Assembly: GCA_951812955.1 (NCBI GenBank)
Contig: OX638340.1
Span: 3,456,001-3,520,000 of the forward strand
Reading direction: 5' to 3'
DNA length: 64,000 nt
Source: an uncultured Gemmatimonadota bacterium
GTDB taxonomy: Bacteria > JAAXHH01
Shown here: positions 6,401 through 6,776 of the stretch, in pieces
Layout: the number at the start of each line of letters is the position of its first letter
How positions within the stretch are numbered: the stretch's first letter is position 1
Notes under the pieces: model-generated
Databases searched by the model: none
What the model was told of the DNA's origin: nothing
The model's input: the letters and a program-made list of their open reading frames with translations, nothing else
Position numbers and translations under genes: made by a program

Positions 6401-6776
6401 GCGACGTGTCTGTTATAAGTAACAGTCGGAGTCTAATTGGAATTCTCGAACTTTTTCTTATGATAAATCGATTTTCAAACACCAATTCTTCACTTACGAC
6501 ATGTCTGCTAATAGCAATAGTCAGCTTCCAATCAGGAACATCAAAATTTCCTGACATATTTCGATTGTCACTTATTCTTCACCTACGACGTGTCTGTTAT
6601 TAGTAACAGTCGGGGATCATTCATATATCTAGAACTATGTTTATTGTAATACGACTTTTACATGATTACATTGCCAATGACGTGTATGTTATTTATACGG
6701 AGTCCAATCGGAAATCTCGAGTTTTTCTGCAATAATAATAAGAAGTACTTTTGTCTCATTCCTTCATCCATTGAAC
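6401..6776. repeat. tandem array of four degenerate ~90-98-bp AT-rich units, each starting GACGTGTCTGTTAT..TAGTCGGAG
   Basis: The units are 6401-6497, 6498-6586, 6587-6678 and 6679-~6776. All begin GAC(G/A)TGT(C/A)TG(T/C)TA and end ...TTCTTCACYTAC or a variant. Units 1 and 3 carry perfect CTGT-N8-ACAG palindromes at 6410-6425 and 6594-6609. Unit 1 carries CTCGAACTTTTTC. Confidence 0.8.

Follow-up and report, generated by a model that had tools for sequence, protein, structure and literature searches.

An AT-rich repeat forms a degenerate tandem array at positions 6396–6776 of a 64,000-nucleotide window of DNA from an uncultured Gemmatimonadota bacterium (the window being the whole stretch analysed) and recurs at several other places in it. 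Judged by sequence comparison, the repeat is probably a cis-regulatory promoter/operator cassette of small genes, a reading to which we give a probability of about 0.6, divided about evenly between a version with a sigma factor and one with a regulator. The array lies in an AT-rich intergenic stretch, the rest of the window being 55–65% G+C, and is bounded by a minus-strand gene (5850–6227) and a plus-strand leucine-rich repeat (LRR) lipoprotein gene starting at 6924. Genes nearby encode Big_2+LRR lipoproteins, a GAF-PAS-HisKA-HATPase-REC-Trans_reg_C hybrid, a thiolase, and LptD. An earlier note on this DNA had proposed a promoter/operator module travelling with its gene unit, or alternatively a repeat like a miniature inverted-repeat transposable element (MITE), with LexA boxes, an XhlA-like product, and a tie to LRR genes. 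The module travelling with a gene unit fits best, whereas the LexA, MITE, XhlA, and LRR parts of that proposal are not supported.

For comparison, 16 loci (L001–L016) from metagenome assemblies or metagenome-assembled genomes (MAGs) of related Gemmatimonadota were used. Fourteen of these (L003–L016) were obtained through homologues of the 125-aa protein encoded at 5850–6227, and L001 and L002 were obtained via exact DNA-pattern scans. The strict pattern, AGTCGGAG-N13-CTCGAACTTTT, gave only one locus each in the genome_contigs and metagenome_contigs collections. A two-block pattern, CGAG[AG]-N12-14-[TC][TC]CGAC, and a profile built from the copies were used separately.

On the plus strand the composite motif is ~75 nt long and reads CTGTTAT..TAGTCGGAG-N13-CTCGAAC-T(n). 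With up to three mismatches allowed, the strict pattern matches the window at 6424, 11848, 13782, and 17266, in each case on the plus strand (four matches versus 0.01 expected). All sites at which the motif had been said to recur were found by the profile except the copy at 19150, which is over-diverged and below profile reach but retains CGAGAA-N14-TCCGAC and the A-tract. Profile scores are strong for the copies at 11825–11886, 13747–13820, and 17233–17304 (E=1e-12 to 1e-18) and marginal for the partial copy at 3937–3962 (E ~0.06–0.6). The reduced pattern CGAGR-N13-TCCGAC occurs four times in the window versus 0.15 expected, always on the minus strand, and two block-level copies, at 311–334 on the minus strand and, as a candidate, at 25026–25058 on the plus strand, were found beyond those previously listed. 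The coordinates of all features are collected in Table 1.

The anatomy of the repeat becomes clear on the minus strand, where it reads as an A-tract, GTTCGAGA, 12–14 nt, (C/T)TCCGAC, and a TA-rich stretch. The full consensus on the small-gene strand is A(5-8) GTTCGA GATTTCGGATTGGA CTCCGAC TAATAC caATAACAGAC acGTCGAA.GGGATG, followed by two to five GGATGCG-type repeats with a 13–14-nt period and then by the start codon. A co-oriented small open reading frame (ORF) starts 44–240 nt downstream of nearly every copy. In every locus oriented with the small gene on the plus strand, the element likewise lies on the plus strand, immediately before the gene; 19 of 20 two-block matches in the loci, and all profile matches with E<1e-6, are on the strand of the small gene. 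The plus-strand reading given in the earlier note is thus reversed, and the motif makes sense on the minus strand, co-oriented with the small gene. The constant neighbor is this small gene, on the opposite strand, and not the LRR genes, to which the tie is incidental: none of the LRR genes at 34–54 kb, that of the 2410-aa protein included, has a copy.

The arrangement of genes around some copies bears directly on which gene is served. The motif is found between co-oriented genes in the lptD to 67-aa gene arrangement (window 19190 and L010 1233) and in the DUF2339 to 200-aa gene arrangement (L009 18171), and can therefore serve only the downstream small gene in these cases. In L010, block 2 comes as close as 44–49 nt to the ATG, the shortest such distance; a start site and a leader can be accommodated in this interval, but hardly a complete promoter besides. 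A promoter or activator site for the plus-strand genes (LRR lipoproteins, histidine kinase-response regulator (HK-RR) hybrid, thiolase), as the originally assumed orientation would have it, is improbable. Most copies do lie in divergent intergenic regions with a plus-strand gene 59–800 nt away, and a sigma-70-like TTGGAA-16-TATGAT is present on the plus strand inside the array unit closest to the small gene (U1). However, other copies do not retain this match, a convergent gene is faced by three strong copies (L001, L003 9856, and L004 3742), and the variants behind lptD and DUF2339 would be directed antisense into the 3' ends of those genes. The plus-strand genes also have their own conserved sigma-70-like promoters, and their distance from the motif is highly variable. 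Two such promoters are TTGACA-17-GATATT at 3985–4013, upstream of the LRR gene at 4168, and TTGATT-17-TATTAA at ~17390–17420, upstream of the thiolase gene and common to L002, indicating that canonical promoters are used in this organism.

TABLE 1. Copies of the repeat, their parts, and associated features in the window and in the compared loci
Feature	Position	Strand	Remarks
Intact proximal module, array unit U1	6389..6460	-	173 nt upstream of ATG at 6227; profile E=2e-18
Parts of U1	A-tract 6452-6456; block 1 GTTCGAG 6445-6451; block 2 CTCCGAC(T) 6424-6431	-	13-nt spacer between blocks; block 2 followed by TGTTACTTATAACAGACACGTCG
Array units	U1 6396-6490; U2 6491-6579; U3 6580-6673; U4 6674-6776	-	95, 89, 94, and 103 nt
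Perfect CTGTTATAAGTAACAG palindrome	6410..6425; second at 6594-6609	.	Overlap with block 2 and with the bases that immediately follow it on the minus strand
Leader between module and ATG	6228..6388	-	GGATGCG-type 14-nt repeats (6332-6382); 13-nt repeats (6229-6289)
125-aa protein gene	5850..6227	-	Downstream of array on minus strand; N-terminal hydrophobic (transmembrane-like) segment; coiled-coil MREEH repeats
Partial copy	3937..3962	-	Coiled-coil gene 3'-end remnant (GTCCGAGCC) joined to module (GTCGGAGCC...TTCTCGAAC)
Solo copy	11825..11886	-	No small gene downstream on minus strand; A/T inverted repeat at 11872-11904
Copy before decayed small-gene start	13747..13820	-	ATC TCT TCA ACG CGA TGA near 13745; A/T inverted repeat 13806-13836
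Copy before coiled-coil gene 3'-end remnant	17233..17304	-	Remnant 17185-17225, then small gene 16848-17093
Diverged variant	19166..19190	-	A-tract and CGAGAA-N14-TCCGAC only; between lptD (19315-21801, -) and co-oriented 67-aa gene (18784-18987, -)
Block-level variant, CGAGAT-N12-ATCTCGAC	311..334	-	A-rich upstream flank; ~60 nt upstream of ORF starting near 249 (-) and running off the window
Candidate block-level variant, CGAGAT-N13-CTTCGAC-TAAT	25026..25058	+	No clear ORF within 260 nt
Block-level variants upstream of 67-74-aa gene	window 19190; L005; L007; L008; L010; L016		Behind lptD
Block-level variants upstream of left-end ORF	window 311-334; L003; L004		
Block-level variant upstream of 200-aa gene	L009 18171		Behind DUF2339
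Block-level orthologous pair	L003 18300 / L004 16177		T-tract replaces A-rich flank; no co-oriented ORF within 260 nt

In diverged variants, what is retained of the repeat is the two blocks and the A-tract. The two-block pattern recovers all members of the long family and in addition variants with unrelated flanks and spacers. Apart from the orthologous pair in L003 and L004, these variants have an A-rich upstream flank, and all of them have TA(A/T)T after block 2. Otherwise unrelated promoters have in common only the A-rich flank, CGAGA, a 13–14-nt gap, and YTCCGAC-TAWT. The few two-block matches within coding regions, with neither the A-rich flank nor TA(A/T)T, are about as numerous as expected by chance. 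Upstream of the 67–74-aa gene, the orthologous region has a mean identity of 51%, with large indels and a distance to the ATG varying between ~50 and 175 nt, and its invariant columns are TCGAGAA and CC.GG.TTCCGAC.A. This invariance is the strongest evidence that we have for selection on the two blocks.

This evidence also bears on the explanation that the repeat is a non-functional relic, its similarity arising from recent segmental and tandem duplication of one intergenic stretch in a rearranging island together with the relatedness of the genomes. Across the compared genomes the thiolase is 89–96% identical in protein sequence and 76–86% identical at 4-fold degenerate sites, and since the genomes are this closely related, orthologous intergenic conservation, that of the long version included, is by itself weak evidence of function. 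Consistent with a relic, the spacer of the long version is conserved along with the blocks, the distal array units U2–U4 are decaying, and remnants and deletion junctions are frequent. Counting against a relic are similarity confined to the blocks in promoters with unrelated flanks and downstream genes, the invariance of the blocks within a 51%-identical and indel-rich region, and a strict strand bias relative to the downstream gene. We therefore consider a relic unlikely, although of the alternatives it deserves the most weight.

In the promoter/operator reading, the cassette would act at the DNA level on the minus strand. An A-tract of 5–8 A at the position of an UP element would be followed by block 1, (G)TTCGAGA, a 13–14-nt spacer, block 2, (C/T)TCCGAC, and a TA-rich stretch, and what contacts the blocks would be either an RNA polymerase holoenzyme that contains an alternative sigma factor or a dedicated regulator that binds DNA at the promoter. 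In this way, a number of small genes, most of them for coiled-coil or membrane proteins, may be co-regulated. We infer both the promoter activity and the nature of the factor from sequence. The sigma-28/FliA promoter consensus is TAAA-N15-GCCGATAA, and promoters of extracytoplasmic function (ECF) sigma factors have AAC-N17-CGAC, as in the sigma-X example TGTAAC-N17-CGAC. Like these, the cassette has two short blocks with a gap fixed within 1 nt and a fixed orientation upstream of several unrelated genes, block 2 (TCCGAC-TAA) has a CCGA/CGAC core, TCGA is positioned exactly N15 upstream of TCCGAC, and the A-tract is at the place of a proximal UP element. In a by-eye comparison with the consensus sequences, the TCGA-N15-TCCGAC geometry fits sigma-28/ECF promoters better than TTGACA-N17-TATAAT. 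The form expected of a promoter of a group 3/4 sigma factor is also found, namely CGAGR-N13/14-TCCGAC with a gap constant within 1 nt, in one orientation, and upstream of ORFs.

The alternative within the same reading is an operator of a dimeric factor. Block 1 and block 2 form an imperfect inverted repeat (TCGAGAA ... TTC-CGA), which is perfect in the 311–334 variant (CGAGAT-N12-ATCTCG), and for this reason we give a dimeric regulator, bound at the promoter or close to it, about the same likelihood as a dedicated sigma factor. The centre-to-centre distance of ~20 bp, equal to two helical turns, agrees with such an operator, whereas in most copies one half-site is one base short. Candidate regulators are limited to the neighboring HK-RR-OmpR hybrids, and the OmpR-type family usually binds direct repeats ~10–11 bp apart. 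In the 340 kb that were searched for lexA, recA, and sigma genes, tblastn with Escherichia coli LexA, FliA, and RpoE gave no matches, and neither a LexA motif nor a promoter consensus for Gemmatimonadota was found in the literature searched.

Several findings weigh against a promoter/operator cassette, or against its sigma-factor version. The blocks fit known -35/-10 consensus sequences poorly, as the -35-like block TCGAGA has TCGA where sigma-28 promoters have TAAA and lacks the AAC of ECF promoters, and CCGAC-TAA has one inserted C relative to GCCGATAA. The inverted repeat of the blocks counts toward a dimeric regulator rather than a sigma factor. No intact gene lies downstream of two strong copies, those at 11848 and 13782. 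A sigma-70-like TAGAAA-17-TATAGT is present at 17110–17082, between the motif and the ATG, and a second, TTGGGA-17-TAAAAC, was seen by eye after the 311–334 copy and before the ATG; at these places the motif would be an upstream site and not the promoter itself. The block-level variants were found with a pattern that was selected after the data had been seen, and conservation of the long version across such close genomes is weak on its own.

Other known elements were compared with the motif by eye and rejected. A sigma-54 promoter does not fit, with no GC at -12, and as a housekeeping sigma-70 promoter TCGAGA-17-ACTAAT matches at 8/12 positions only and is without the A at position 2 of the -10 hexamer. 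A Bacteroidetes-type TTTG / TAnnTTTG promoter, a tRNA-like T-arm, and attC or dif sites were likewise rejected, as was a Rho-independent terminator, for which the stem is weak and nothing upstream is in need of terminating. Most likely the cassette is ordinary in kind, a lineage-specific promoter/operator that is duplicated and eroded in a rearranging island, and new in sequence. The motif sequence is undescribed in Rfam and in the literature searched.

The array itself consists of four degenerate units of 89–103 nt, as had been described, and the profile recovers these units at a spacing of 95, 89, and 94 nt. Their mean column identity when aligned is 61%, and Tandem Repeats Finder did not call the 6396–6776 array because the units are too degenerate. 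Only U1 has both blocks intact, whereas neither block is left in U2, each block of U3 carries one mismatch, and block 2 of U4 has a 5-nt deletion; the profile scores of U2, U3, and U4 are E=6e-7, 7e-7, and 3e-6, respectively. As the gene-proximal unit alone is intact, U2–U4 are probably decaying duplicates, and there is no sign in the window that the extra units are maintained. Two two-unit arrays are found in L002, one with a 54-nt period that is exactly the core, which together with the four-unit array of the window indicates that the cassette is prone to tandem duplication.

The history suggested by these copies is one in which the long 75-nt version would have been duplicated along with the MSST/MYQKL coiled-coil gene, amplified in tandem (four units in the window and two units twice in L002), and left behind on deletion or decay of the gene. 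Ancestrally, the 75-nt version belongs to this gene. Where another gene follows the 75-nt version, a decayed MSST/MYQKL piece lies between them (window 17290, L003 6032, L013 3002, and L009 3148). Duplication followed by gene loss explains why the copies at 11848 and 13782 stand alone and why that at 3945 is partial. The partial copy is the junction left by a deletion across a short homology (GTCCGAGCC / GTCGGAGCC), and L008 contains the same junction. Remnants of the 3' end of the coiled-coil gene are fused to or adjoin modules at 3890–3945 and 17185–17225 and also in L008 and L013, and these mark deletions across short homologies. In L010, module-like sequences at 4000–4027 (+) and 4109–4082 (-) face each other ~55 nt apart upstream of a second coiled-coil gene.

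Local amplification and partial copies, together with the presence of several copies within 16 kb, are also what a MITE-like or other mobile repeat spreading between intergenic spacers might show, and as with MITE and repetitive extragenic palindromic (REP) repeats the element is short, AT-rich, and intergenic, with several full and partial copies. It differs from these repeats in its low copy number, in being tied to one island and to small genes, and in having no terminal inverted repeats. Neither terminal inverted repeats nor target duplications are found at the aligned module ends (AAAAAAGTTCGAG ... GTCGAA.GGGATG), which are not inverted copies of one another; the inverted repeats found are limited to A/T arms at or beyond the end of the A-tract and short palindromes inside the array units. 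The profile finds no copy in the remaining 45 kb of the window, where many LRR genes are located. The orientation is fixed, and the same copies are found at orthologous positions in relatives. Among the loci, every copy other than the orthologous pair L003 18300 / L004 16177 has a co-oriented ORF within 260 nt. A scan of viral contigs gave no matches, and the strict pattern had a single match in each of the two big collections. A mobile repeat is accordingly very improbable.

The A/T arms correspond to the GAAC(T)n/(A)nGTTC inverted repeat that had been described as perfect in three copies. It is perfect in two, at 11872–11904 with 11-nt arms and at 13806–13836 with 10-nt arms, and imperfect in the third, at 17287–17322, where it was not called. 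Hairpins of this kind are present in some copies, and the occurrence of tandem copies placed divergently before the gene for a small membrane protein has a parallel in tisB/istR-type loci. These features could suggest that the repeat encodes an RNA, either a small one (structured or antisense) or a leader element, for example a divergent small RNA that controls the small membrane protein as in type I toxin-antitoxin pairs. However, the hairpin is missing from array-type and variant copies, and when 19 distinct copies were aligned for tests of structure and pair conservation, RNAalifold found 0 consensus pairs on either strand. Stems that could be drawn from GTCGGAG/CTCGAAC, the CTGT..ACAG palindrome, and TCGGA/TCCGA paired and covaried no better than shuffled or slid controls. 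No Rfam match was found at the gathering score, and the single match at E<=1 is unrelated and inside a gene. In addition, the proteins are coiled-coil proteins of 67–167 aa, not typical type I toxins. An RNA element is thus quite improbable.

The perfect CTGT-N8-ACAG palindromes that had been noticed in two array units, at 6410–6425 and 6594–6609, are confirmed, and the window contains three such sites in all versus 0.56 expected. They equal the LexA box of E. coli (PMC8565304), and if the motif is read on the minus strand, the palindrome would coincide in part with the presumed start region, a usual place for a repressor. An SOS operator bound by LexA, through which DNA damage would induce the small membrane protein, is nevertheless the most improbable of the readings. 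The palindrome is perfect in 2 of the 19 distinct copies and is not conserved in paralogous and orthologous copies; the three inner CTGT/ACAG pairs, which define it (28–41, 29–40, and 30–39), are Watson-Crick in 7, 2, and 5 of the 19 copies, respectively, with no compensatory change beyond that of shuffles. It is missing from the block-level variants and from more distant relatives, which have CTCTCATAATCGTAAC or CCTGATAGTACC at its position. The differences from the gammaproteobacterial box are the lack of conservation, the Gemmatimonadota lineage, and the lack of an SOS gene context, with no SOS genes nearby and neither lexA, which the earlier note had suggested looking for, nor recA in the 340 kb searched. 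LexA motifs differ greatly between phyla (PMC4951493), and the literature searched gave none for Gemmatimonadota. The case shows that chance can give rise to a perfect LexA box of the E. coli type within an unrelated AT-rich motif.

The 125-aa protein encoded downstream of the array has 48 homologues in a large protein collection; for one that is syntenic, the source gives the name 'Gemmatimonadota bacterium'. The description of this protein as XhlA-like is not borne out, as its matches are sub-threshold coiled-coil matches from which PF10779 is absent, the best Pfam match being CCDC90-like at 26.2 bits versus a cut-off of 33.5 bits. Other small proteins score 14.0 and 30.2 bits against XhlA (PF10779), for which the gathering threshold is 34.7 bits, and a PHROGs search with the small proteins gave only weak, sub-threshold generic coiled-coil matches. 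The downstream small proteins have no detectable relation to one another. Repeats of 33 nt (11 aa, MREEHAAIREE) are present within the small coiled-coil gene at 5931–6054, and the small coiled-coil homologues, of 70–167 aa, differ in repeat number.

The leader between the module and the ATG is also repetitive. Two to five GGATGCG-type repeats with a 13–14-nt period are found at 6332–6382 (-) in the window and at the same position in L003, L004, L005, L007, L008, and L010, and the last of them is at the usual Shine-Dalgarno position. GGAUG repeats in a leader are reminiscent of CsrA-type binding sites. Directly upstream of the ATG at 6227, the 13-nt repeat CCGTTCCTCTCTA is present in 4.7 copies at 6229–6289, which are a decayed, duplicated N-terminal extension (MSSTVMNHER..GN) of the protein. 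The extension MSSTVMNH... is still in frame in L002, L004, L005, and L007.

A broader interpretation is that the cassette marks the regulon of an uncharacterized alternative sigma factor or regulator in sponge-metagenome Gemmatimonadota that activates small coiled-coil membrane proteins, with tandem amplification of the cassette and its recombination at short homologies serving as a copy-number switch. Through such a switch, strains would differ in how strongly they express the small proteins and the neighboring LRR surface proteins, and the four units in the window, the 2+2 units in L002, and the deletion junctions at 3945 and 17185 could be instances of it. We regard this interpretation as distinctly unlikely. 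If the promoter/operator reading itself is right, the cassette is a first cis-regulatory signature for an uncultivated Gemmatimonadota lineage, for which record labels point to metagenome studies of sponges. With the two-block motif, co-regulated small proteins could then be catalogued in complete MAGs and the matching sigma factor or regulator sought.

The surroundings of the repeat contain further repeated elements. The genes at 14414–16807 and 30764–33259 encode paralogous one-protein two-component systems (GAF-PAS-HisKA-HATPase-REC-Trans_reg_C), and in L002, L005, L006, L008, L010, L011, L014, and L015 the small coiled-coil gene and a homologue of this HK-RR-OmpR hybrid are arranged tail-to-tail. 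Directly after the second hybrid gene (30764–33259), degenerate 13-nt CGCATCC-type repeats at 33340–33470 resemble the coiled-coil leader repeats in style, with no module or small gene left there. A dense cluster of surface or 'eukaryote-like' repeat proteins is encoded at 23067–24599, 25418–26452, 34537–41769, and 46815–52364. It comprises collagen-repeat proteins, one with a trypsin-like domain, a 1849-aa CARDB/Big_2/M66-like protein, and the 2410-aa LRR protein, which is built of 72-nt repeats.

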